From assembly GCA_034440535.1 (NCBI GenBank), contig JAWXCD010000004.1, forward strand, positions 2,803 through 66,802: a DNA stretch of 64,000 nt. Direction: 5' to 3'. Positions within the stretch are counted from its first letter, which is position 1. Every line of letters starts with the position of its first letter. Positions 245 to 64,000 of this stretch are shown piece by piece. Origin of the DNA: Verrucomicrobiota bacterium (GTDB taxonomy: Bacteria > Verrucomicrobiota > Verrucomicrobiia > JAWXBN01 > JAWXCD01). The notes below the pieces were generated by a model, which saw only the letters and a program-made list of their open reading frames with translations, did no database searches and was not told where the DNA came from. Made by a program: the position numbers and the translations under genes.

Positions 245-1270
245 ATGCAGGAACTGGAAGGCCTTAGGCCTTATTTATCAGGAAAAATTAAGGGTCAACA
301 CGAAGCTATTGAGGTCGTGGCATCGGCTATCATTCGAGCGCAAATGGGGCATGTCAAACGGGACCGGCCGAAGGGCGTGTTCCTCTTTCTTGGTCCCACC
401 GGCGTGGGCAAGACCGAAACCGCTCATGCGCTTTGTGATTATTTTAATCAGACACAGGATAACCGTAGTCGTGAGCCTTTTATGTGGCGGTGTGACATGG
501 CAGAGTTTCAAAGGCAGGAATCCATTGACCTTTTGATAGGCGGCAAAGGGGATCATGGTACATTAGGCTCAGCTTTGGAACGACTTGAAGTAGGGAAATC
601 CGGCGTTAAAATATTGTTATTTGATGAAATCGAAAAGGCGCATCCAAGAATCACGACTCTTTTTTTCAGTGCGTTGGATGCTGCACGAATAACATTAGGG
701 GATGGGAGAACGAGGAATTTAGCATCCTATTACATCGTTTTTACGAGTAATCTTGGAAGTCATGAGACCGTAAAAATGGAGCATGTGCCGTTTGCAACGC
801 TGAAACGGCATGTCGAAAGTGTCGCACAAAAGTTTTTCAGTCCTCCTTTGTATGCGCGATTTGGGGAAAAGGTTGTGTATCGAAAGTTAGGATACGAAAC
901 ACAGTTGGAAATTTGCCGGTCTATGCTTGAAAAGGATTTGAAAGAGTTTTTCGGAGTTCGATGGAAACGACAGATAATAGCAGACGCAGCCGTATTTAAT
1001 TATTTGGTCAAAAAAGGGTATTCGAGAATGTTAGGAGCCCGTCCCATGCGGGATGTGATCGAACGCGAAATAGGAAATGCCCTTTCAAAATGGGCACTTA
1101 ATCATTTTAATATTACCGGTGTAGAACCAGCCGGGGCAGGCCACATTCACTTAAAAGTAGATGAAATTGCAGAGTCAGGTGAGTGCCTTTACGTGGAAGA
1201 CAAACTGGGAGATGTCTTTATAGACCAAAAGATAAGATCATTGGTTTCTGTAAATAACGCAAATATATGA
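245..1270 (+). CDS. AAA+ ATPase, ClpB/ClpA D2-domain-like (standalone; in-frame stop immediately upstream at 233-235)
   Basis: Walker A 'FLFLGPTGVGKTE', 'LLFDEIEKAHP', 'VFTSNLGS' match the ClpB D2 module; ORF begins exactly at D2 boundary; no D1/N domain in frame. Confidence 0.6.
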   Translation: MQELEGLRPYLSGKIKGQHEAIEVVASAIIRAQMGHVKRDRPKGVFLFLGPTGVGKTETAHALCDYFNQTQDNRSREPFMWRCDMAEFQRQESIDLLIGGKGDHGTLGSALERLEVGKSGVKILLFDEIEKAHPRITTLFFSALDAARITLGDGRTRNLASYYIVFTSNLGSHETVKMEHVPFATLKRHVESVAQKFFSPPLYARFGEKVVYRKLGYETQLEICRSMLEKDLKEFFGVRWKRQIIADAAVFNYLVKKGYSRMLGARPMRDVIEREIGNALSKWALNHFNITGVEPAGAGHIHLKVDEIAESGECLYVEDKLGDVFIDQKIRSLVSVNNANI

Positions 1271-3613: not shown

Positions 3614-5233
3614 ATGAACAGTATAGAGAAACTCAAAAAAATGTTCACCCGTGGCGAAGCCTTTGTATGGCTGACAGGGTCGGCCATGGGCTTATGTCTT
3701 GTCCTGGTATTTGGGCTAATTTTTGTCATCGTTATTAATGGGATGGGAATGTTTTGGCCGCACCAGGTGACTGAGTTTAAACTTAAAGAAGGCCCCGTTT
3801 ATGTGGGTATACATACACGATCTGAAGTCGTGAAAGATGAACAAGGCGGGAAGTTAGAGCGGTACCAGGTTAAAGTGGGCAATCGCGAGTCTGGGGCTGA
3901 TTTTATGTGGATGGACGTGCCTAAAGTGGAAGCTAAGGCCATACCTAAGGATGTTATTGTCTTAGAGCGATTTGAGTACGGTGATTTTATTGGATACGTC
4001 TCCGGGTTCCAACAGGATGGGGTGTTGGTCCCAGGTGCTGACGCGAAGGCTTTATTGGCGGAGAAACTCCCTCAAGCTCAAGAGGCCTTTAAAAAGGTGA
4101 GTCATATTCAGCGGGGCGAAATGGAAAATATCGCCACGAAGGTTAATAAGTTAAAGTTGCGAAAAGACAAATTAGCTAAAGCCACAAGTGATAAGTCACA
4201 GGAAATAGCAAAATTAGATGCACAATTGGCAGTACTTCTGGCAGAAAATAATAAACACAGCGCGCGTATATTAGATTTGAATAAAGACCCAGCTCGGTAT
4301 GGGTTGGTCGTTAAATCGGCAGATGGAGTTGAACGAGTAGTGCCCATGCCGAATATCGTGAGGTATTATTATCCAAACGACATGTCATTCTTTCAAAAAA
4401 CAGGCCATTACGGAGCGAAAGTGTGGGAATTTTTGTTTGCAGAACCTCGGGAATCGAATACCGAAGGCGGGGTTTATCCTGCCATATTTGGAACGGTTTT
4501 GATGACCCTCCTCATGAGTGTTGCCGTCACACCATTTGGAGTGCTTACAGCGTTCTACCTTGGTGAATATGCCAAAGACGGGATTTTCCTTAAACTCGTT
4601 CGAATTGCGGTTAACAATTTGGCTGGGGTTCCCTCAATTGTCTTTGGGGTCTTTGGCCTAGGCTTCTTGGTATACGGGGTGGGCGGTGGAATTGATAGAT
4701 TGTTTTATTCTGATATATTGCCCACACCCACTTTTGGAACAGGCGGACTCATTTGGGCATCATTAACGTTGGCGCTACTCACGTTGCCAGTTGTGATTGT
4801 GGCGACAGAAGAATCAATCGCAGCCGTTCCGCGCGGGGTTAAAGAGGGTTCTTTGGCGATGGGTGCCTCAAAATTTCAGACGATTCTCAAAGTGGTCTTG
4901 CCAGCTTCGGTCCCTGGGATAATGACGGGAGTTATCTTGGCCATTGCCCGTGGAGCGGGAGAAGTAGCGCCACTCATGATTACCGGAGTAGCCAAAATGG
5001 CTACTGAGCTTCCGTTGGATGGGAACGCTCCTTATTTTCATCCCGAACGAAAAATCATGCACCTTGGATTTCATATTTATGATGTCGGATTTCAATCGCC
5101 AAATATCGAAGCCTCAAAACCCATGGTGTTTACAACGGCTTTGCTATTGTTGGTTATTGTATTGGCCCTTAATATAGTGGCCATTGTCATTCGGGATCAT
5201 GTTAAAAAGAAATATAGGACAGGAGCCTTTTGA
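3614..5233 (+). CDS. pstA: phosphate ABC transporter permease PstA (long form with ~250-aa periplasmic insert)
   Basis: 'GASKFQTILKVVLPASVPGIMTGVILAIARGAGEVAPLMITG' EAA-loop; starts 3 nt after pstC stop. Confidence 0.85.
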   Translation: MNSIEKLKKMFTRGEAFVWLTGSAMGLCLVLVFGLIFVIVINGMGMFWPHQVTEFKLKEGPVYVGIHTRSEVVKDEQGGKLERYQVKVGNRESGADFMWMDVPKVEAKAIPKDVIVLERFEYGDFIGYVSGFQQDGVLVPGADAKALLAEKLPQAQEAFKKVSHIQRGEMENIATKVNKLKLRKDKLAKATSDKSQEIAKLDAQLAVLLAENNKHSARILDLNKDPARYGLVVKSADGVERVVPMPNIVRYYYPNDMSFFQKTGHYGAKVWEFLFAEPRESNTEGGVYPAIFGTVLMTLLMSVAVTPFGVLTAFYLGEYAKDGIFLKLVRIAVNNLAGVPSIVFGVFGLGFLVYGVGGGIDRLFYSDILPTPTFGTGGLIWASLTLALLTLPVVIVATEESIAAVPRGVKEGSLAMGASKFQTILKVVLPASVPGIMTGVILAIARGAGEVAPLMITGVAKMATELPLDGNAPYFHPERKIMHLGFHIYDVGFQSPNIEASKPMVFTTALLLLVIVLALNIVAIVIRDHVKKKYRTGAF

Positions 5234-5260: not shown

Positions 5261-6142
5261 ATGTCAAATGAGAGCCTGATAGCAAAAACAAAGAATGTTA
5301 TGCCGGAAGAAACTAAAAAGCGCGTTGAGTCTGAAGTGCAAATGAAATCTCTAAAGACCTCCATTGCGGAGACACCTGAGGGAACATATGCGACTTGCAT
5401 CGACATTAAAAAACTCAATTTATACTACGGGACAAAACAAGCCCTATATGACATCAGCCTGACCATTCCTAGGCACCAAGTCACGGCGTTCATTGGGCCG
5501 TCAGGCTGTGGAAAAAGCACGCTGTTGCGTTGTTTGAATCGGATGAACGATCTGGTTGACAATGTGCGTATTGACGGGGAGGTGTTAATTGACAGTAAGA
5601 ACATTTATAACCCTGAACTAGACGTCATTAATCTTCGGAAAAACATCGGAATGGTATTCCAGAAATCAAACCCATTTCCGAAAAGTATATACGAAAATGT
5701 GGCTTACGGCTTGCGTATCGCCGGGATTACGAATAAAAAAATTCTGGATGAAGTCGTGGAATCAAGTCTCAAAGGAGCTGCACTTTGGGAAGAGGCTAAG
5801 GACCGCTTGAATGACAGTGCATTGGGGTTATCGGGCGGCCAACAACAAAGACTTTGTATTGCACGCGCCATTGCCATTAAACCAGAAGTTATTTTGATGG
5901 ACGAACCCGCTTCGGCGCTTGATCCGATTGCGACAGGAAAGATTGAAGAACTGATTCTTCAACTCAAGGACCGGTATACGATCGTCATTGTTACGCATAA
6001 CATGCAGCAGGCGGCCCGTATATCTGACCTCACGGCATTCTTTTATCTGGGTAAATTGATTGAGTATGATAAAACTCGAACGATCTTTATGAACCCAACG
6101 ATAAAACAGACAGAAGATTATGTGACCGGACGGTTCGGTTAA
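5261..6142 (+). CDS. pstB: phosphate import ATP-binding protein PstB
   Basis: Walker A 'GPSGCGKST', signature '[16 protein letters not shown]', Walker B '[11 protein letters not shown]'; characteristic PstB N-terminal extension. Confidence 0.95.
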
Positions 6143-6162: not shown

Positions 6163-6837
6163 ATGGAACGCACATTCGAAAATGATTTGTCGCAAATTAA
6201 AGAGGCCATTTTGACCATGGCCAGTCTCGTTGAAAAAAACTTTAAGGTTGCCATTCGCGCCTTAGTGGAACGCGACGAAAGCCTCATTGATGAAGTGATG
6301 CGCGGTGAGGAAGAGATTGACCAGTATGATGTCAAAATCAACGATATGGCTATCTTGTACATTGCGCGACAAGCCCCAGTGGCCAGTGATCTTCGGTTTA
6401 TCACAACGGTAATGAAAGTTTCATCGGACTTAGAACGAGTGGGCGATCAAGCTGTTAATATTTGCAAACGCACACGGGAGCTGAATAAAGAACCGTTACT
6501 TAAACCCCTGATTGATATTCCACGACTTGCCCATATGTCGCTTGAAATGCTGCGCGACGCGATGGACGCCTTTGTAAATAACAAGATGTACTTGGTGTCA
6601 GAAATTACGACGCGGGACAAAGATGTGAACGAGTTGAAGAACCAATTATATCGTGAACTGACATCGTACATGATTGAAAACCCAAAGACGATCACTCGCG
6701 CATTAAATTTGATGTCGACATCCCGTCATCTTGAACGTGTTGCGGATCACGCCAAGAATATCGCTAAAAAAGTATACTTCATGTACGAAGGCAAAGATAT
6801 CTCACATCAAGATCCCCCCGTCGTTTCTAAATATTAA
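6163..6837 (+). CDS. phoU: phosphate transport system regulator PhoU
   Basis: two PhoU repeats with 'DLERVGDQAVNI' / 'HLERVADHAKNIA' motifs; position after pstB. Confidence 0.9.
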   Translation: MERTFENDLSQIKEAILTMASLVEKNFKVAIRALVERDESLIDEVMRGEEEIDQYDVKINDMAILYIARQAPVASDLRFITTVMKVSSDLERVGDQAVNICKRTRELNKEPLLKPLIDIPRLAHMSLEMLRDAMDAFVNNKMYLVSEITTRDKDVNELKNQLYRELTSYMIENPKTITRALNLMSTSRHLERVADHAKNIAKKVYFMYEGKDISHQDPPVVSKY

Positions 6838-39412: not shown

Positions 39413-39711
39413 AAATTCAGGTCATACAATTTCGAGAAGCGCAGAAAAAGCTTATAAATGGCGAATAATTTGTCTGTCCCCGTTGAACGCAATCAGTTTG
39501 ATCTAAGAGAAGTTGCTGTCGGTTTTGTTCATCCGATTCATAACCTTGTAGCTGTCATGATCATCAATGGCACGTGCGGCGAGATGAAACACCACAAGCG
39601 TATCCGTGATCTCTGTAGCGCTATTTACGAGGATTTGTAGCTGGTGAAAAAGTACGCGGGGCGCACTTAACCGGGCAATCCCGAAGTCGTTCGGGCATAT
39701 TCCCAAAAAAA

Positions 39712-41985
39712 CTATATTTCCAATTTACCTCTTACCCACTGGGAGAAAATGTCAAATTGCGAGGGAGTGCATAAAATGAGAAGGGCATCGTAGGCAATAA
39801 GATGTTCCGTGTTCAAAGGATTAAGAATTGTTTTCCCCTCACGATGGATGCCGAGAACTTGCACGCCGGTTTTCTTCTGAATGCCCAGCTGAGCTAAAGA
39901 CCTACTAATTAAAGGGGAATAATCCGGAAGTGAAATGGTTTCCAGGGCGGTATCAGACAGTTTCCACTGATGATTATGTGCCTTGGATCTGGAAAGGAAT
40001 TCTAACGCTTTTCTTAAGTACTCTTCATCCCCAAAAAGCAAAACTTTGTCTTCAGGAAATAACATTTCTTCAGGATTAGGATTAGAAATTACAACCCCGT
40101 TTCTTTCTATCTCGATAATTGAACATGAAAACCGATTCCTTAAATCAAGGTCAACTAGTGTTTGACCTACTGCCTGAGCATCTTCTGAGACTGTAAATTC
40201 GCTAAGCTCGACATTCCAATCCATCTGCAGCGAATTTTTAAAGGAACCGGGCATTTGGTTCTCTTCCAAAGCTTGGTTGAAGCTGATTTGAAGCTTACTG
40301 TGCCATCGGATCAACTTGGTCCAAAAGATACCGATGAAAAGGCCAAGTCCAACGAGCATAAAAGTCAGCGTTGTAAGACTGAGCGATTCAAATGGGAGAA
40401 AGACCACCATCCAGAGAAACAGGCAGATGACTGCAAGTATGTGGATGAGCCTGAGCCACATAGCTTGTGTTTGTGATATGGCATCGGAGCCGGCGGTTAG
40501 TCCATCTAAAATTATAAGGATTAAAGCCTCAAAATTCCTCCAAACCGCAACCAATACGAGAGCCACGATCACAAAAACGAACGACCAATAGAAGGCCATC
40601 CACACTGGGAAATCCCATCCCGCTTGGATAAGCAGTGAGTCGATTAATTCCTTTAGTAATCCTGAATAACTGAGCACCCCCGCGATAAGGAATAGTTCTA
40701 TTAAAGCATGCCCCAAACGATTTCGTGCGAGGTTTAAAAAGGCCTTTTGTTGTGTCGTTCTTGAAATTTCTTCGGTAAACCGGCCGTAACTATCAATGAG
40801 TTTAAAAATAATCTTGGGGGCGTGGCTGTCAATTTTTCCGGATATGCCGTCCGAAAAGCGAGCCAGAATGGGAACAATGGCGGCAGTGATTACTGAAACT
40901 CCAACGGCAATAGAGAATAAGCGAGTAGGCATGCCAGCTTCTAGGCCCATTTGGGCAATCACGTATGAAAACTCGCCAATGGGAATTAAAAGCATGGCAG
41001 TACATACGGCTGAACGAAAAGTCGAGCCTCCCAAGATTGATCCCAGAGTGGCTCCTACCATTCTTGCTCCAATAGTGAGAACGGATACAGCGAGGATCCA
41101 CTGCCAATCACGCATGAGGGAATGAATGTCGATCATCATTCCTATAGCCACAAAGAATACGGCGCTAAAGATGTCCTGAGTCCCCATGAGCGCCTTTTCA
41201 ACTTTTTCGCGGAAAGGAGTTTCAGCGACGATCATTCCGAAAAGGAATGCCCCCAGCGCTGGTGAAAAATTAGCTTTATAGGTGGCATATGCGGTAAGAA
41301 AAACGAGTCCCGCGACGAGTATGGTTTTTACGTCTAAATTTCCGGACTTTGAGAAGTGTTTGAGCAATGGAGGAATTACGGATAGGCCTATGACGACCAT
41401 GAGAATTACCAAGCCAGCCAAAAGAAGGAGGGTTTTGAACGGATTGGCATTGGAAGCTCCACTCACCGCATGACCAGAAAGAATCGTCAACATGACAACG
41501 GCTACGATGTCCTCCATGACAACCATGCCTAAGGCCCTTTGAGCAAATCGTTCGTGGGTTAATCTGGCTTCGGCCATAACTTTGGTGATAATCGCCGAAC
41601 TAGAGATCATGAGCATGCCTGCGAGAAATAGGCCTTCATTAGCTGACCATCCCATGGCGTGCGCAAAGAATCGGCTGGCAAAAAATACAACAATAGAAGT
41701 GGTCGCTGTGGCCAGGACAACGGCCAAACCAAGTTTGCGGAGTTTGGCGAGACTCAAATGAAGCCCTACAAAAAACATCACTAGAACCAAGCCTAGGTGC
41801 GAGAAGGTATGAACGCGGTGTTCGTCGATCAATTCGACAATTGGGGAGTGGGGGCCAATGATTAAACCAGCGGCGAGGAACCCTACAATTGATGACAACT
41901 TAAGGGATCGAAAAAAGAGACCGAACACCCCTGCGAAAACAAGCAGAATGGCTAGGTCCTTTAAGAATAAAATACCTTCATCCAC
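39712..41985 (-). CDS. monovalent cation:proton antiporter (CPA2/Kef-type) with C-terminal RCK_C (TrkA-C) domains
   Basis: 12-13 TM Na+/H+ exchanger core, C-terminal 'VSEDAQAVGQTLVDLDLRNRFSCSIIEIERNGVVISNP' TrkA-C-like repeats. Confidence 0.85.
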   Translation of the reverse strand: MDEGILFLKDLAILLVFAGVFGLFFRSLKLSSIVGFLAAGLIIGPHSPIVELIDEHRVHTFSHLGLVLVMFFVGLHLSLAKLRKLGLAVVLATATTSIVVFFASRFFAHAMGWSANEGLFLAGMLMISSSAIITKVMAEARLTHERFAQRALGMVVMEDIVAVVMLTILSGHAVSGASNANPFKTLLLLAGLVILMVVIGLSVIPPLLKHFSKSGNLDVKTILVAGLVFLTAYATYKANFSPALGAFLFGMIVAETPFREKVEKALMGTQDIFSAVFFVAIGMMIDIHSLMRDWQWILAVSVLTIGARMVGATLGSILGGSTFRSAVCTAMLLIPIGEFSYVIAQMGLEAGMPTRLFSIAVGVSVITAAIVPILARFSDGISGKIDSHAPKIIFKLIDSYGRFTEEISRTTQQKAFLNLARNRLGHALIELFLIAGVLSYSGLLKELIDSLLIQAGWDFPVWMAFYWSFVFVIVALVLVAVWRNFEALILIILDGLTAGSDAISQTQAMWLRLIHILAVICLFLWMVVFLPFESLSLTTLTFMLVGLGLFIGIFWTKLIRWHSKLQISFNQALEENQMPGSFKNSLQMDWNVELSEFTVSEDAQAVGQTLVDLDLRNRFSCSIIEIERNGVVISNPNPEEMLFPEDKVLLFGDEEYLRKALEFLSRSKAHNHQWKLSDTALETISLPDYSPLISRSLAQLGIQKKTGVQVLGIHREGKTILNPLNTEHLIAYDALLILCTPSQFDIFSQWVRGKLEI

Positions 41986-42468
41986 GAACCATCGTTATTA
42001 AGGTCTTTGGTTAAGAGAGGAAGCTAATTTTGTTTCTTTGATCTTAATGTGATAAGGCGCAGACAGGTTCTTCACCAAGGTTAAGCCAACTGATCTCCTC
42101 GGGAGAAAGCGTAATATCCAAGGCAAGGAGTCGATGTCAAACTTTTACCGAGCACTGGGGAACTTTATGTTTTGGCGTGTTCTGGAAACCGGTTGGCCAT
42201 AGAACGCGCCATGCGACGACGGCAACTCAAGAAACTCTGGGCCCGCCTAGCGGAATTAAAGAAAATGACGATCCCGCGAGATGCGTTGACGCTAAAACTT
42301 GGAGCGGCCTGCTTTCGACTTCATAAGAAAAACAAAACAGCGCCCGTAGTGAAGACCTTTGGTCAAAATTTCAAGCATCACGAGAGAGGGCTACCAAAAT
42401 ATCCATCCAGTAGCGAAAGTCGGGTTAGGACACCCATGTGTATCACCCAGAGGGACAGAGATTGAGAA

Positions 42469-42870
42469 TTATGGTGTGGCCCTATTCCCGATATCGAGTA
42501 GGTGCCCTTCAGGAAATGTGAGTGTCATGGAAGCGGGAGATATTTTGGGGGCATATTGCACACGGTCAACCGTCCCATTTTTATCCAGAGAAATCAAATA
42601 CTCAGCCCTAAAGGTCATTGGCATGGTGGGATTTTTTCCTGCAATGGTTCCCCACACACCCGGGCGTGCAAAGAGACCAGTGACTATTGTCACTTCAATT
42701 TTAGGAGGGAGTGTCCCGGTGGATTTGACGTATTGGTCACGAAACCAAGGGATAAGTGTTTCAGCCCAGATCCGTTGACCAGCAGGGTTTTTGGCTCCCA
42801 TGCGCATACTGAGGATTTTGCTGATAAAGACAGGGTAATTGGGCCGAAAGACAAGCTGTCCATAGTCGAA
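42469..42870 (-). pseudogene. 5'-truncated gene of unknown function whose open frame runs into the repeat array
   Basis: frame stays open upstream of the listed ATG (42807) through 42870 with no start codon before the repeats; encodes '...MRMGAKNPAGQRIWAETLIPWFRDQYV...'. Confidence 0.35.
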
Positions 42871-43011
42871 AAAAATTAGGGACAGAAAAAAATTAGGGAC
42901 AGGCTATTAGTCGTTGTGCCCGAGGGACAAAAAAAATTAGGGACAGGCTATTAGTCGTTGTGCCCGAGGGACAAAAAAAATTAGGGACAGGCTATTAGTC
43001 GTTGTGCCCGA
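42869..43011 (+). repeat. contiguous array of about 3.5 ~45-nt REP-like units, 'AAAAAAATTAGGGACAGGCTATTAGTCGTTGTGCCCGAGGGACA'
   Basis: direct reading: unit repeated head-to-tail at 42869-42886 (partial), 42887-42930, 42931-42976, 42977-43011 (partial end); no spacers. Confidence 0.9.
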
Positions 43012-43181
43012 AATCTGAAGGGCAAACTATTTTTCATTTATGGAAGACGTCTGGCAGATTACCAATGGAGCCGAATATAAGCGGCGAAGATGAGTCCGAT
43101 GTCATCCTAGGGAAAGCAGGATTAAAAGAAAAAACCGTTCCCAGTGTTGTTTTGATCCTCTTTTGATGCTAACAATGTCCT

Positions 43182-43466
43182 ATGCACAGCCTTCTTGAAG
43201 TCAAAGCCTTGGAACACTTCCAGCTCTGGCTCCGTTACGATGACGGAACACAGGGAGCCGTAGATGTTTCCTCCTATGCCTCTCAGCCAGTGTTTGCCTG
43301 CTGGCATAATCCCGGTGGCTTTGAGGCCGCCCACAAGGGGGAAGGGGGATCAGTTGAATGGAGTGAATCGGCAGACTTGTGTGCGGATGCCCTTTATTTG
43401 AAATTAACCGGACGTCGCCCCGAAGACATTTTTCCCGCACTTAAAAAGGTGACTGTTCATGCCTGA
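43182..43466 (+). CDS. DUF2442-family protein
   Basis: 'LEVKALEHFQLWLRYDDGTQGAVDVS' resembles DUF2442 consensus; 8-nt overlap with following DUF4160 gene (typical pair). Confidence 0.7.
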   Translation: MHSLLEVKALEHFQLWLRYDDGTQGAVDVSSYASQPVFACWHNPGGFEAAHKGEGGSVEWSESADLCADALYLKLTGRRPEDIFPALKKVTVHA

Positions 43467-43719
43467 AATCAGCCGTTTCTTTGGCATCATCATCCGCATG
43501 TATCATGACGACCACGCACCGCCCCACTTCCATGCTGATTACGCCGAATGTAAGGCCGTTATCGACATTCGCACCCTGATGGTGTTGCAAGGGAATATGC
43601 CCGCACGGGCCCTAGGCATGGTCACAGAATGGGCTACCCTTCACCAAGGCGAATTGCTCGCCTTCTGGGACCGCGCCCAATCTGGCCAACCCCTCGAAAA
43701 GATTCCCCCTCTGGCCTGA
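43459..43719 (+). CDS. DUF4160-family protein
   Basis: 'ISRFFGIIIRMYHDDHAPPHFHADYAECKAVIDI' is the hallmark DUF4160 N-terminus. Confidence 0.8.
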   Translation: MPEISRFFGIIIRMYHDDHAPPHFHADYAECKAVIDIRTLMVLQGNMPARALGMVTEWATLHQGELLAFWDRAQSGQPLEKIPPLA

Positions 43720-44050
43720 TTTTTCCTTTTAGCCGTCTCACAGAATTGAAAGTTTGTATCCCTTCGCGCATCTTTTTTTGCAGCTGATATCATCGGCGTT
43801 TCCTCTAAAACAGAGTCAACGGTGTCCTCAAAGGGGACAGACAAATTATTGGTCATTTAAAAGCCATTTTCTACGTTTCCTGTTTTTGTACTATCCATAA
43901 ACCCTATGATCAGAATGCGATCATTAAAATGTAAGGAATTTTCCTTCGAAGTATTGAATCAAAGCATCAAAGCCATGTCTGGGCTGGCCAAGGCATTTCG
44001 AAGGCAAGAAAATGCCCCGTGTTATCCGCCTCTCTGTTTGCTTAAAACTT

Positions 44051-44449
44051 CTAAATCTGGCCCGGGTATCCAATCGTACTCATCTTTAAGTCCCGGAGTG
44101 TCATTATATCCACATCGTCCGCTGCGTGTCTGATTCGACGGGCTCCGGTTTCACGGTTCTTGCCAAACCACTTCCGGTTCTTTTCGAAAACTTTCTCCAC
44201 AAACGCTTCGGTTCCGATGGCAACGCCATCACTAAAGTATCGCACTCGGCACATAAGCAGTTGTCCCAAAGACAGTTTTCCCTCTGAATCCACAACTTTC
44301 CGAACCTCCTCTCGGTCTATCCCGCACCGCATCCGGGGTTGACCGTCATGTGCCGCTCGCGGAGCGTCTTTCGTCTCTGTGCTTTCCGCTACTAAATACA
44401 TGTGCACCCGATACCTTGCCATCTTGTGCTCTGTCTTTCGCAGGTCCAC
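44051..44449 (-). pseudogene. internally deleted COG1943 (IS200-like / REP-associated-type) transposase remnant
   Basis: N-terminal 'MARYRVHMYLV' resembles 'MARP.RIEYPGA.YHVM' starts of this family; C-terminal 'RVRYFSDGVAIGTEAFVEKVFEKNRK' resembles the '...RYRQFVEEG...ILGGEEFLERMK' tail; HuH/Tyr catalytic core absent. Confidence 0.45.
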
Positions 44450-44465
44450 CGCGCACTTTTCCAGA

Positions 44466-44490
44466 ACTAATAGCCTGTCCCTAAGTTTTT
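44466..44490 (-). repeat. single inverted copy of the REP-like unit core (rc = AAAAAACTTAGGGACAGGCTATTAGT)
   Basis: 25/26 nt identical to the array unit at 42887, in reverse complement, 17 nt upstream of the transposase remnant start. Confidence 0.8.
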
Positions 44491-44746
44491 TGTGCGTCCG
44501 GCCCCAAAATACAACTTATCCCATAGCCACGGCTGCGGAATAAGTTGTTTAAATGTCCATCCATTTTAGGTGACCATCCATCTCAAAAAGCCAAAAGATA
44601 AACCTGAGGTTACCAATGCCATCACAACATCGCCCAACCCATACGACATCCCCGAGCAAAATGGACAGTCTTAATCTGGAATTATGCCCAAAACCATACG
44701 ACGCCAATTGTGAGTTTCGATATGATGTTAATTATGAAAATAACAG

Positions 44747-45199
44747 TTACACCCAATCTTTACCTTGGCCGATTTCCATTACTTTCAGTTTTAGCAGGTC
44801 AATCCCTTGCGCGTTCCCGCCTTTGTCTTTTAATAGATCAAGACTACGTAAAAGAAGGCTAAAAAGGAGTCGCCTCCTTTGATGTTCATTAGCAATTTTA
44901 AAGTCTGAATATCTGATTACCAAACGGAAATCCATATCCCTCTTTTTCTTGAAAAATTTAATAACTTCAGAGAAATCTGAATCGTCCCTTAGAATAACTA
45001 TACAATCCCAAGCGTCTACACCAATATCGTATGTTTGTTTTTCAATATCCCCATTGATCACTGCCTCTAGATCTTTTCTGACAGGTTGAAAAACGTCAAC
45101 TATGTCCGCTTGAGTTTCAGTGCCGATCCATAATTTCATATTAATAATCCGATTTGTTAAACGCAGGTCTATTGCCGCCATGATTAGATTTATGGTCAC
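44747..45199 (-). CDS. hypothetical protein, possible barstar-like immunity protein
   Basis: 'EAVINGDIEKQTYDIGVDAWDCIVIL' echoes barstar 'KAVINGEQI...YYGENLDALWDCLTG'; alternative start 'MKLWIG' at 45139 would sit 1 nt after the upstream fragment stop. Confidence 0.35.
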   Translation of the reverse strand: MTINLIMAAIDLRLTNRIINMKLWIGTETQADIVDVFQPVRKDLEAVINGDIEKQTYDIGVDAWDCIVILRDDSDFSEVIKFFKKKRDMDFRLVIRYSDFKIANEHQRRRLLFSLLLRSLDLLKDKGGNAQGIDLLKLKVMEIGQGKDWV

Positions 45200-45467
45200 G
45201 GATTTTTTCTGTTTGCCATTTGTGCATTTCCTTTTTTGTGCCGGAAGTCTCTTTCACATATTCGAGGTTATTATCTTTTAAATATTTTTTCGAGTATCTT
45301 TTTTGCTTTCCGGACCCAAATTTATCTTCCCCACGAGTGGTTTCTCCAAACTTTTTCACCTCTCCAGTATCCCGTTCCCTGAGCGTGTATCCTTCGGCTG
45401 GTTTGTCATCTAACTTATCCCCATGCGTTTTGGATTTTTCAACCGGCGATTGAACCTCTTTTCCGAT
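45141..45467 (-). pseudogene. start-less basic C-terminal ORF fragment (possible orphan toxin C-terminal module)
   Basis: frame open from the in-frame TAA at 45468-45470 down to the stop at 45141-45143, with no ATG. Only a GTG at 45359. Lys-rich sequence with 'EMHKWQTEKIRDHKSNHGGN'. Confidence 0.25.
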
Positions 45468-45800
45468 TTATTTTGAACTCCCACTCGGACTATCTCCAGC
45501 TGCCCGGAGTTTATTCCAACACAGGTTTACGTAGGTAGGAAAAATTGGGAAAAGGGAATCGGCGAAGACGCCGAAGAACAGACAGGATTGTCTATTCCAC
45601 ATTGGGCGTAGGTGCTGGATCATGCCAAGCAAAACTCGGTCAGAGATGCGACTTTTCAACCAAGGGGAATCTGGTTATGGTCTGCTTCAATTTTCTGTCG
45701 ATGAAACATGTTAGACTTAAAGACTATTTGAAACTCCGACTTTTTCAAGTTTCTTGGTTTTATGCATATTTCCTAATGAGATGAAAGTGAAACAAAACTT

Positions 45801-63868: not shown

Positions 63869-64000
63869 GAATTTAGGGACAGGAAGACAACGGTGTCCAA
63901 AATTTGAGATTATAAAGTCGCATAAAGGCGTTGTAATTGAGACAAAGAATTTAGGGACAAGAGACAAAGAATTTAGGGACAGGCTAATAGTTGTAGACAG
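63869..64000 (+). repeat. second cluster of the REP-like family (GAATTTAGGGACAGG...; GAGACAAAGAATTTAGGGACA x2; ...GGGACAGGCTAATAGTTGTAGACAG)
   Basis: three copies of 'AATTTAGGGACA(G/A)G' with the 'GCTA(A/T)TAGT' extension on the last, same orientation as the array at 42.9 kb; runs off window end. Confidence 0.8.

Follow-up and report, generated by a model that had tools for sequence, protein, structure and literature searches.

The closest described relatives of the locus analyzed here are the TIRYT elements, or TIRtrons. Most of their terminal inverted repeats (TIRs) follow the consensus GGGGWSAS, i.e., GGGG[AT][CG]A[CG], according to the original description (Di Nocera 2013, PMC3733652). 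In two later studies, TIRtrons are equated with TnpAY1 subclass 2.1 and with RAYT group 1 (Quentin 2018, PMC6006769; Bertels 2017, PMC5581495). The former describes TnpAY1 subclass 2.3 as proteins of ~325 aa with the motifs NHYH, WE and YVDLNP, an insertion of ~55 aa between beta3 and alphaC and a long subclass-specific tail, found mainly in Chromatiales and Alteromonadales and without identifiable flanking REP-like structures (PMC6006769). Neither a host from the Verrucomicrobiota nor the 19-27-nt end reported below is described in the accessible text of these TIRYT/TnpAY1 papers (PMC3733652, PMC6006769, PMC5581495). TIRYT and TnpAY1 subclass 2.1-2.3 enzymes are widespread and little studied, and none of their DNA substrates or cleavage sites was reported in the literature searched. 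A further system of relevance is the toxin-antitoxin pair DhiTA, which was validated in Dickeya (PMC8198452; PMC12065111).

The window, i.e., the whole 64-kb stretch of DNA that was analyzed, contains the following features:

39436-39486, minus strand: solo right-end-type (type B) repeat, intergenic (repeat comparison)
42868-42901, plus strand: outer left-end tip GAAAAAAATTAGGGACA as a 17-nt x2 "stutter" ending exactly at GGGACA (Tandem Repeats Finder, repeat-family comparison)
42886-43017, plus strand: three 44-nt units AAAAAAATTAGGGACAGGCTATTAGTCGTTGTGCCCGAGGGACA, type-A end repeats in direct orientation (Tandem Repeats Finder, repeat-family comparison)
43041-43091, plus strand: short module also present in repeat clusters of L025/L012 (82%), encoding the C-terminal remnant ...EDVWQITNGAEYKRRR up to its stop (sequence comparison)
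43182-43466, plus strand: DUF2442 gene, 94 aa, DhiA-like putative antitoxin, short form (Pfam PF10387, 3.4e-9)
43459-43719, plus strand: DUF4160 gene, 86 aa, DhiT-like putative toxin (Pfam PF13711, 1.2e-20)
43832-43853, plus strand: right TIR AGGGGACAGACAAATTATTGGT, fitting GGGG[AT][CG]A[CG] (end of the alignment to the full-length element L032; recurs in many loci)
43854-44050, minus strand: conserved 3' non-coding region of the element, ~200 nt from stop codon to right end (96% to L018/19/28/30)
44051-44449, minus strand: what remains of a ~345-aa RAYT-like Y1 transposase gene after loss of its 5' part (protein and nucleotide alignments)
44446-44491, minus strand: left-end (type A) terminal repeat AAAAAACTTAGGGACAGGCTATTAGTTCTGGAAAAGTGCGCGGTGGAC (repeat comparison, alignment to L032)
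63873-63991, plus strand: second type-A cluster, with TTAGGGACA, a 78-nt spacer, a 22-nt stutter x2 and GGCTAATAGTTGTAGACA, running off the window end (tandem-repeat and motif search)

Taken together, the locus is ordinary genome debris, made up of a dead element copy, end fragments and a common toxin-antitoxin-type pair.

The element copy at 43832-44491 and its relatives

A previous, sequence-only reading of this DNA took the 132-codon ORF for a remnant of a COG1943/PF01797-type Y1 transposase that retained the N-terminus and the tail and lacked the HuH-Tyr core. The family assignment was confirmed, with the ORF falling in the RAYT-like branch, and neither the HuH nor the Tyr motif was found in the ORF when it was aligned to its relatives and to L032, the whole catalytic core being missing. 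The supposed N-terminus was a misreading: MARYRVHMYLV aligns to residues ~234-244 of the ~345-aa relatives, so that the ORF represents an uninterrupted C-terminal third (~residues 225-345), and it is probably a pseudogene. An AlphaFold model of the retained fragment reached a pLDDT of 76, and a Foldseek search of this model against the PDB returned no match (best E = 5.7).

Since a word-index homologue search returned only 3 proteins, an exhaustive search was needed, in which the ORF matched 1052 representative proteins; the full-length ones have ~340 aa and were matched only at residues ~225-345. These relatives, which have a length of ~345 aa and in which about 100 aa separate HuH from W, carry the motifs NHFH, WE and YIDLNP and match NCBIfam REP_Tyr_transpos at 5e-18, which is below its cut-off. 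Pfam Y1_Tnp was present in 8/8 long relatives tested and in 41 of the 87 aligned members, and the Pfam domains Bac_DnaA_C, HTH_23 and HTH_28 were not found in 10 full-length relatives or in the 87 aligned members. NCBIfam transpos_IS200 scored 28 bits on the relatives vs. a cut-off of 55 (E 1.8e-6), and ISDra2/IS608-type TnpA from the PDB matched them over the HuH half only (E ~1e-3).

In related contigs, full-length genes are flanked by inverted ends which the repeats of the window match, and the proposed association of the repeats with this transposase gene family was correct. The gene of L032 lies between inverted copies of GGGACAGACAAAYTATTATT, a second subfamily (L036/L037) has the inverted ends CTAGGGACGGAC...TATCAAC, and a type-A end is located ~60 nt upstream of the gene N-terminus in L017, L024 and L033. 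Overall, the family comprises three subfamilies with clear inverted ends, and its TIRs are imperfect, with the core GGGAC(A/G)G(A/G)C. No full-length Y1 gene was found in the 64-kb window, and the link between the repeats and an active enzyme in the host genome is therefore indirect. Several full and fragmentary copies, not all of them assignable to one genome, were encountered in differing surroundings within the same mat samples (L006, L007, L011, L032 and the window).

The window copy aligns to L032 from GGACCTGCGAA (44441) to TTGTCTGTCCCCT (43832), with a nucleotide identity of 84-92%. The element's own right end, at 43832-43853, reads GGGGACAGACAAATTATTGGT, and, because the copy ends there, 43832-44491 is, as judged by this alignment, one internally deleted element copy consisting of left end, C-terminal gene third, 3' non-coding region and right end. 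A GGAC microhomology at about 44444-44453 marks the point where the left end is joined to mid-gene sequence. The two ends of this copy, type A on the left and type B-like on the right, have only about 10-12 nt in common. A small hairpin, TGTCCT/GGGACA, with GGGACA as its 3' foot, is located at 43823-43839; its fold was not significant (z -1.55).

This alignment bears directly on the earlier proposal that the locus is a decayed classical REPtron, bracketed by inverted REPs (the 42.9-kb array and the 44.47-kb copy), which carried or captured the DUF2442/DUF4160 pair. A reverse-complement copy does exist near 44466 (44466-44491, 26 nt, 96% complementary to the array, or 29 nt at 93%), so array and copy are truly inverted; moreover, the gene family is RAYT-like and the repeats are dispersed and clustered as REPs are. 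However, the alignment to L032 gives the right end at 43832-43853, rather than the array, as the partner of the 44466 copy. Since this right end separates the ORF from the DUF pair, the pair lies outside the element, and, because none of the 30+ further repeat loci inspected contains it, its carriage or capture is unsupported. Further, the units are non-palindromic and have neither a GTAG nor a CGTC foot, and single-stranded folding gave z = -0.39 for the array unit and z = +0.67 for the left end, which does not agree with the REP-type palindromes that had been proposed. Full-length copies bear TIRs rather than REP hairpins, and repeat clusters at other loci are in direct orientation, not inverted. 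We thus consider the REPtron proposal, which the alignment to L032 largely refutes, quite improbable.

The array, its neighbors and the dispersal of the repeats

The head-to-tail array of ~45-nt units noted previously at 42869-43011 was recovered by Tandem Repeats Finder with a period of 44 (42878-43011, 3.0 copies, 98% matches), preceded by a repeat of period 17 (42868-42902, 2.1 copies). The complete array, at 42868-43017, consists of a 17-nt unit x2 and then a 44-nt unit x3, the third of which begins to diverge after CCCGA. An identical array is present in the assemblies L034 and L035; in the search for an empty site, both covered the left flank and terminated within the array, so that the search yielded no such site. 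The 19-mer TTAGGGACAGGCTATTAGT occurs four times exactly in the 64-kb window and once more with 1 mismatch at 63973, while shuffled sequences are expected to give 0. The right end at 43832-43853 and the further copies at 39436-39486 and 63873-63991 had been missed by the earlier reading.

The predicted dispersal of the repeats in the genome and in relatives was also observed. Forty-four exact copies of the 19-mer were found in 25 microbial-mat metagenome contigs, which may represent several strains; many of these copies precede ordinary genes and have no transposase in their vicinity. The 19-mer was also present in 5/5 genomes placed by GTDB in Verrucomicrobiota, four of which likewise have a stutter or tandem copy upstream. 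In both sets the 19-mer is often found in intergenic arrays, and the 19-27-mer end sequence is conserved across Verrucomicrobiota classes. Inverted doublets, REPIN- or MITE-like, occur as well (e.g., L032 355-430 and L025 7250-7340). In this genome, which to judge from the distribution of the motif is probably of the Verrucomicrobiota, the ends behave like a REP-analogous family of dispersed intergenic repeats, showing that elements of this type can give rise to REP-like dispersed repeats outside Proteobacteria. Neither end type was matched in the viral contigs searched. Rfam scans, one at the gathering threshold (window and 7 loci) and one permissive (42000-45500), gave no match on the repeats, reporting only tRNAs and Acido-Lenti-1 in L005.

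Other identities were considered for the 27-mer. By inspection, a CRISPR-like repeat, a dif/att site and a sigma-54 or sigma-70 promoter were all rejected: the spacers are identical, dyad symmetry is confined to CTAWTAG, and a -12 GC is missing. The promoter/terminator scan remained at background.

Downstream of the array, the DUF2442 and DUF4160 genes overlap by 8 nt, and both domain assignments made previously hold (E-values as listed above). An exact look-up of the DUF4160 protein retrieved no identical record, and PADLOC gave no match on five local ORFs. Upstream, the ORF at 42469-42870 had been regarded as a truncated gene lacking a start. It has an ATG at 42807 (112 aa), two other assemblies call it as a gene, and the homologue search retrieved nothing except the ORF itself; a truncation thus cannot be shown, and the ORF is best described as an orphan with its own ATG. 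Searches with this ORF and with that at 42172-42465 yielded only self matches or short unannotated fragments. Farther out, a kefB-like gene is located at 39712-41985 and an Imm44-like gene at 44747-45199.

The array precedes the DUF2442 start by ~165 nt, which raises the alternative that it is functional and binds a protein, as an operator, iteron or nucleoid-protein site would, to control the DUF2442/DUF4160 operon or a neighbor; a conserved 19-27-mer in direct repeats could indeed be bound, perhaps by the extra domains of the Y1 protein. However, the motif also precedes various unrelated genes, e.g., ThiH-like and TerC-like ones, and is found within disrupted transposase genes, and no promoter-like site rose above background. 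Toxin-antitoxin operators are normally palindromic and adjoin the promoter, which also counts against a binding array. We regard this role as extremely unlikely.

Break points and a candidate nick site

Eight independent short duplications (periods 17-42) have variable left borders and a right border that is always at +9 or +10, directly after GGGACA. Dispersed copies stop after TGTGGACA, at +27 to +29, and in L032 a fragment of an upstream gene stops at GCGACA. Not all junctions follow this rule: the 44-nt unit is bordered between TTA and GGGACA and between CCCGA and AATC, so not ending at GGGACA, nor do some longer duplications (L009, L015), and the stutter in L003-L005 stops after TTAG(G). 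Since the eight duplications share the exact end after GGGACA, we infer from these break points that its 3' edge would be the nick site of the enzyme.

Overall, the locus is probably the debris of a TIRtron-type family with a ~345-aa RAYT-like Y1 (HuH) gene and imperfect TIRs, in which the arrays would have been made by the enzyme and the DUF pair would be independent. The cognate Y1 enzyme would nick single-stranded DNA directly after GGGACA, and likewise after a second box, TGGACA, located 18 nt downstream, and would then rejoin ends. Mis-joining of a true site with nearby GACA-like sites or with sister copies would give rise to the short stutter duplications, to longer tandem units and to internal deletions that have the left end as their anchor. 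The segment 42868-43017 would then be a pile-up of left-end fragments, and the DUF2442/DUF4160 pair an independent DhiA/DhiT-like type II module that came by chance to lie in a recombination-prone patch.

Alternatively, the repeats may be Y1 element ends whose arrays, stutters and deletions arose by ordinary slippage during replication or by microhomology-mediated recombination at A-rich/GACA repeats, with no site-specific cleavage. Several junctions show 1-5 nt of microhomology (GACA, GGACA, GGAC), the borders of some long duplications fall elsewhere, the enzyme gene is absent from the window, and ordinary slippage could explain the window's own GGAC deletion junction. However, slippage does not readily account for a right border that is identical to the nucleotide in 8/8 short duplications with differing periods and left borders, nor for at least one duplication (L009) with zero microhomology. 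The pattern is repeated in L037, which belongs to another subfamily and where it ends at GGGAC, and recurs in distant Verrucomicrobiota genomes. On balance, we consider slippage unlikely.

The enzyme-driven reading, in which the subfamilies, the conserved 19-27-mer and the 8 duplications are combined, yields a concrete prediction of substrate and nick site. The candidate single-stranded substrate of the 345-aa Y1 protein (e.g., the L032 copy) is TTAGGGACAGGCTAWTAGTTGTGGACA; candidate substrates also include AAAAACTTAGGGACAGGCTAWTAGTTGTGGACA and the right end, with predicted nicks 3' of GGGACA and, secondly, after TGGACA. Because two plus-strand GGGACA sites, in the 42.9-kb array and at the 43.83-kb right end, flank the DhiTA-like genes, the enzyme could conceivably excise and re-insert this ~0.85-kb cassette as a single-stranded circle. 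We think this very improbable; if true, the dispersed repeats would go beyond debris and constitute an IS608-like or integron-like cassette-mobilizing system. The window locus itself is of little significance, and it is the wider family that is more useful.

Comparison with known systems

The DUF2442/DUF4160 pair resembles DhiT/DhiA of Dickeya dadantii, which likewise consists of a DUF4160 and a DUF2442 protein from overlapping genes (PMC8198452). The gene order differs, with DUF2442 first here and DUF4160 followed by DUF2442 in Dickeya and in the usual arrangement (PMC8198452, PMC12065111). Neither protein reaches its NCBIfam cut-off: the DUF4160 protein matches DhiT over its full length (1.3e-22, 80.2 bits vs. 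100), whereas the 94-aa DUF2442 protein matches only 67 of the 160 profile positions of DhiA, at the N-terminus (3.3e-7, 30.9 bits vs. 200). The pair is DhiT/DhiA-like, of a validated toxin-antitoxin family characterized by a growth-inhibiting toxin, an antitoxin that neutralizes it and an autoregulating complex, and may have a toxin-antitoxin function here.

With regard to the element, REP/RAYT systems (REPtrons, REPINs) share with it a Y1 HuH enzyme of the same branch and short inverted flanks that are also dispersed intergenically. In those systems, however, the repeats are GTAG-footed palindromes of 20-40 nt, as opposed to units with no significant fold here, and the gene is single-copy, vertically inherited and domesticated; multiple copies and fragments, not all assignable to one genome, were seen here. 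The arrays described above also differ in being direct, head-to-tail and marked by a nucleotide-precise stutter. IS200/IS605 elements (IS608, ISDra2) have the same HuH/Tyr chemistry, and the cleavage proposed here, beside a short specific sequence at the foot of a small hairpin or close to it, would be analogous to their TTAC/TTGAT target-guided cleavage. Their transposase, however, has ~150 aa vs. 345 aa, and their subterminal hairpins are in direct orientation with no TIRs, which are present here.

The possible resemblance to TnpAY1 subclass 2.3 includes length (about 325-345 aa), the motifs NH[YF]H, WE and Y[VI]DLNP, apparently several copies per genome, a large core insertion and a long two-part C-terminal tail, whereas the clear TIRs and the derived dispersed repeat family constitute a difference. 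Assignment to this subclass would be tentative, as it comes from a comparison of motifs and lengths.

In line with TIRtrons/TIRYT, a RAYT-like Y1 HuH gene lies, in the full-length relatives, between TIRs instead of REP hairpins, moderately abundant TIR families occur as singles, dimers and clusters, and the elements, with their duplicates and fragments, are more IS-like than classical RAYTs. The motif GGGG[AT][CG]A[CG] is matched by GGGGACAG at 43833-43840, and in 7/8 positions by AGGGACAG in the array and left-end copies. The protein is longer than the subclass 2.1 median (345 vs. 238 aa), with an insertion of ~60 aa between the HuH and W motifs, and subclass 2.1 has a C-terminal HTH extension, in contrast to a tail here with no Bac_DnaA_C/HTH Pfam domain. 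As far as these comparisons go, the repeats are TIRs of the TIRtron/TIRYT type.

The transposase remnant and its full-length relatives

The features of the locus are listed below in window coordinates.

Features of the locus
42469-42807, minus strand: ORF with an ATG, 112 aa
42886-43017: three 44-nt units (repeat search of the window)
43182-43466: DUF2442 gene (Pfam 3.4e-9)
43459-43719: DUF4160 gene (Pfam 1.2e-20)
43832-43853: right end, plus strand reads AGGGGACAGACAAATTATTGGT (alignment to L032)
44051-44449, minus strand: 132-codon ORF
44446-44491: type-A left end, 86% identity over 44 nt to the L020/L022 variant
44466-44491: inverted arm, 26 nt at 96% or 29 nt at 93% (repeat search)

The 132-codon ORF had no Pfam or NCBIfam match of its own, and an exhaustive phmmer search of 1.84 billion representative proteins recovered 1052 relatives. 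Full-length relatives span ~330-350 aa and carry PF01797 (Y1_Tnp) at the N-terminus (8 of 8 long relatives tested; 41 of 87 aligned members), in line with the Y1-type identity proposed at the superfamily level by the sequence-only reading. That reading had also described the ORF as an N-terminus joined to a C-terminal tail. However, MARYRVHMYLV aligns internally (e.g., with LARYRTHMYLE, ~234-244 of the full-length relative P0004), and the ORF, which corresponds solely to residues ~225-345, is therefore one contiguous C-terminal third. The C-terminal domain matched no Pfam family, and its AlphaFold model (pLDDT 76) no PDB entry.

An intact gene (345 aa) was found in L032, a contig from the same microbial-mat sample series as the window copy, with 84% DNA identity to the latter over 630 nt. 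Its protein carries the motifs NHFH (HuH), TLWEDRF and AAYIDLNPVRA (Tyr); it matched the NCBIfam 'REP-associated tyrosine transposase' model at 5e-18, below the cut-off and with the match divided in two by an insertion, the IS200 model weakly and, among PDB sequences, only ISDra2-type TnpA, over the HuH half. The gene lies between near-perfect inverted repeats: the left end reads AAGGGACAGACAAACTATTATTGACAAAT, including TTGACA, a -35-like hexamer, and the right end, reverse-complemented, GAGGGGACAGACAAATTATTATTCATTTT. A second subfamily (P0004; loci L036/L037) has inverted CTAGGGACGGAC...TATCAAC ends, and the type-A (left-end) sequence of the window, AAAAACTTAGGGACAGGCTAATAGTTGTGGACA, is located ~60 nt upstream of the start of a related gene in L017, L024 and L033. 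In L036 (~1270-1510), the right end of the P0004-subfamily element is present in tandem, with a 113-nt unit. L032 also encodes a P-loop ATPase ORF (691-1236, minus strand, 181 aa, GPNGAGKTT) and, after it, a small ORF, both located where the right end of the full-length element gives way to an end-repeat cluster. The ATPase is zeta-toxin/AAA-like by appearance, with weak database support; this is another small module, possibly of addiction type, among dense repeats.

Homology of the window copy to L032 runs from GGACCTGCGAA (44441) past the stop codon and through ~200 nt of 3' non-coding sequence, up to TTGTCTGTCCCCT (43832), and its left end is joined to mid-gene at a GGAC microhomology. With the left end at 44446-44491 and the right end at 43832, the element thus comprises 43832-44491 and, judging from these alignments, is an internally deleted copy that has kept both ends. 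The 3' non-coding region contains an 8-nt tandem duplication (ATCAAAGC twice, 43958-43973), where L018 and its relatives show a 6-nt deletion relative to the window.

The DUF2442/DUF4160 pair and neighbouring ORFs

Pfam confirmed the proposed DUF2442 and DUF4160 genes, which overlap by 8 nt. The pair had been taken as possibly carried or captured by the element, a geometry that did not hold: the right end lies at 43832-43853, and the pair falls between the array and that end, i.e., outside the element. Nearly all other pieces of the 42.87-44.75 kb stretch recur in other loci, but the DUF pair was found in none of the 35 fetched loci (tblastn, blastn). The pair is a member of the DhiT/DhiA family and independent of the element. 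In Dickeya, DhiT/DhiA has been shown to act as a type II toxin-antitoxin system (PMC8198452), and the usual order is DUF4160 followed by DUF2442 (PMC12065111). In contrast, DUF2442 comes first in the window, its protein is short, and both proteins score below the NCBIfam cut-offs.

The frame at 42469-42870 had been regarded as a truncated gene without a start. However, 42469-42807 has an ATG, this ORF appears among the called genes of one Logan and one JGI contig, both with an identical array, and a homologue search returned only the ORF itself; that the frame stays open beyond the ATG therefore does not count as evidence for truncation.

Other neighbours include a 97-aa ORF (42172-42465, plus strand) whose homologues are short unannotated fragments only, possibly another mobile-element remnant, and a short remnant (43041-43091, plus strand) encoding ...EDVWQITNGAEYKRRR*, with 82% DNA identity to the terminal part of a longer L025 ORF (6850-7100, minus strand), whose C-terminus may resemble a DDE-transposase tail. 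Abutting the repeat cluster, a 150-aa ORF (44747-45199, minus strand) matched Imm44, a polymorphic-toxin immunity protein (Pfam 3.4e-9), with no toxin gene evident beside it.

Repeat family and breakpoints

The repeat array and inverted copy reported from sequence were recovered by Tandem Repeats Finder (42878-43011, period 44, 3.0 copies, 98% matches; 42868-42902, period 17, 2.1 copies) and by the repeat search, which gave four copies of GAAAAAAATTAGGGACA in the window. Exact copies of the 19-mer TTAGGGACAGGCTATTAGT number four, where shuffles expect 0, and a fifth copy, at 63973, has a single mismatch; TTAGGGACA occurs eight times vs. 0.35 expected. A solo right-end-type repeat, GAATAATTTGTCTGTCCCCG (39436-39486, minus strand), is intergenic between an SbcCD-like gene pair and a Na/H-exchanger (Kef-like) gene, and a further repeated module (44632-44745) is 94.7% identical to L031 and L009 stretches adjoining type-A arrays.

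Counting beyond the window yielded 44 exact metagenomic copies of the 19-mer across 25 contigs, nearly all belonging to a single series of microbial-mat samples and many being repeat views of the same locus in different samples, as well as matches in five GTDB representative genomes (Kiritimatiellia, Verrucomicrobiia, Lentisphaeria, Opitutales, Puniceicoccaceae). Under uniform composition, several matches would be expected by chance in 596 Gb. This is countered by the restriction of all five genome matches to a single phylum, GTDB Verrucomicrobiota, by their common ATTAGGG flank, and by upstream partial or tandem copies at four of them. The extended consensus, AAAAAC-TTAGGGACA-GGCTAWTAGT-TGTGGACA, places a small palindrome, CTAWTAG, between two GGACA boxes spaced 18 nt. 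Some copies precede ordinary genes (ThiH-like, TerC-like, dioxygenase-like) that have no transposase close by; others sit within broken transposase genes, joined at differing positions (~residue 225 in the window, ~residue 175 in L011, the 3' non-coding region in L018/19/28/30); inverted, MITE/REPIN-like doublets are also present. Repeat units did not fold beyond shuffles (z = -0.39, array unit; +0.67, left end), the only recurring hairpin was one of 5-6 bp, TGTCC(T)/GGGACA, at type-B (right) ends, and Rfam gave no match on the repeats. In the Opitutales chromosome (L004, 5560-5970), the motif comes after a sulfatase-like N-terminus cut off after ~40 codons, with a tRNA-Leu(CAG) gene 160 nt downstream; in the Puniceicoccaceae contig (L005), which is full of GC-rich palindromic repeats, two copies of the Acido-Lenti-1 RNA motif (Rfam; 4717-4762 and 5039-5084; 40-43 bits, exceeding the gathering threshold) lie on either side of the 19-mer.

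A script was used to map tandem duplications near each TTAGGGACA. Eight independent short ones emerged (L009, L014, L018, L023, L031, L032, and the window at 42.87 and 63.95 kb), with periods of 17, 17, 18, 20, 22, 27, 29 and 42 nt and differing left borders, and all eight stop at +9 or +10, directly after GGGACA, that in L009 without microhomology. For dispersed copies the endpoint is +27 to +29, following TGTGGACA, the gene fragment upstream in L032 stops at GCGACA, and the left-end tip of L037 (1-45) carries a 14-nt duplication stopping at GGGAC. Exceptions are the 44-nt unit itself and two long duplications, of L009 and L015, whose borders fall elsewhere. We infer from these breakpoints that DNA is probably broken site-specifically 3' of GGGACA and of TGGACA; the simplest cause would be nicking by the Y1 enzyme, after which mis-joining would give rise to duplications, deletions and arrays. 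In L003-L005, partial copies that precede the motif stop after TTAG(G) rather than GGGACA, which hints that breakage has a second position or a different one; they come from three distant Verrucomicrobiota genomes (L003 ~6384-6420, L004 ~5665-5711, L005 ~4841-4870; e.g., AAAAATTAG-CAAAATTAG-CACAAAATTAGGGACAGG).

Comparison with known systems

RAYT-like genes flanked by terminal inverted repeats (TIRs) were named TIRtrons/TIRYT in the account of Di Nocera et al. (PMC3733652), where many TIRs are described as having GGGGWSAS in common and as occurring singly, as dimers or in clusters; GGGGACAG, at 43833-43840, fits this motif exactly. In Quentin et al. (PMC6006769), TIRYT corresponds to TnpAY1 subclass 2.1, of ~238 aa with an HTH tail, whereas the proteins studied here have 345 aa and no HTH Pfam match. 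Subclass 2.3 is described there as having 325 aa, NHYH/WE/YVDLNP, a 55-aa core insertion and a long tail, with several copies per genome, no REP identified in that description, and a distribution mainly in Chromatiales and Alteromonadales. With 345 aa, NHFH/WE/YIDLNP and a large insertion, the proteins of the full-length relatives look 2.3-like. Group 1 RAYTs are presented by Bertels et al. (PMC5581495) as the most IS-like RAYTs.

Overall, the sequence features and superfamily-level assignment of the sequence-only reading stood, while its geometry and detail did not: at this locus, an independent DhiTA-like pair sits next to a TIRtron-type element that has decayed, together with repeat debris derived from element ends. 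TIRtron-type elements are already known, though poorly studied; the value of the present locus lies mainly in a nick-site prediction open to test and in the extension of TIR-derived, REP-like repeat families to Verrucomicrobiota.
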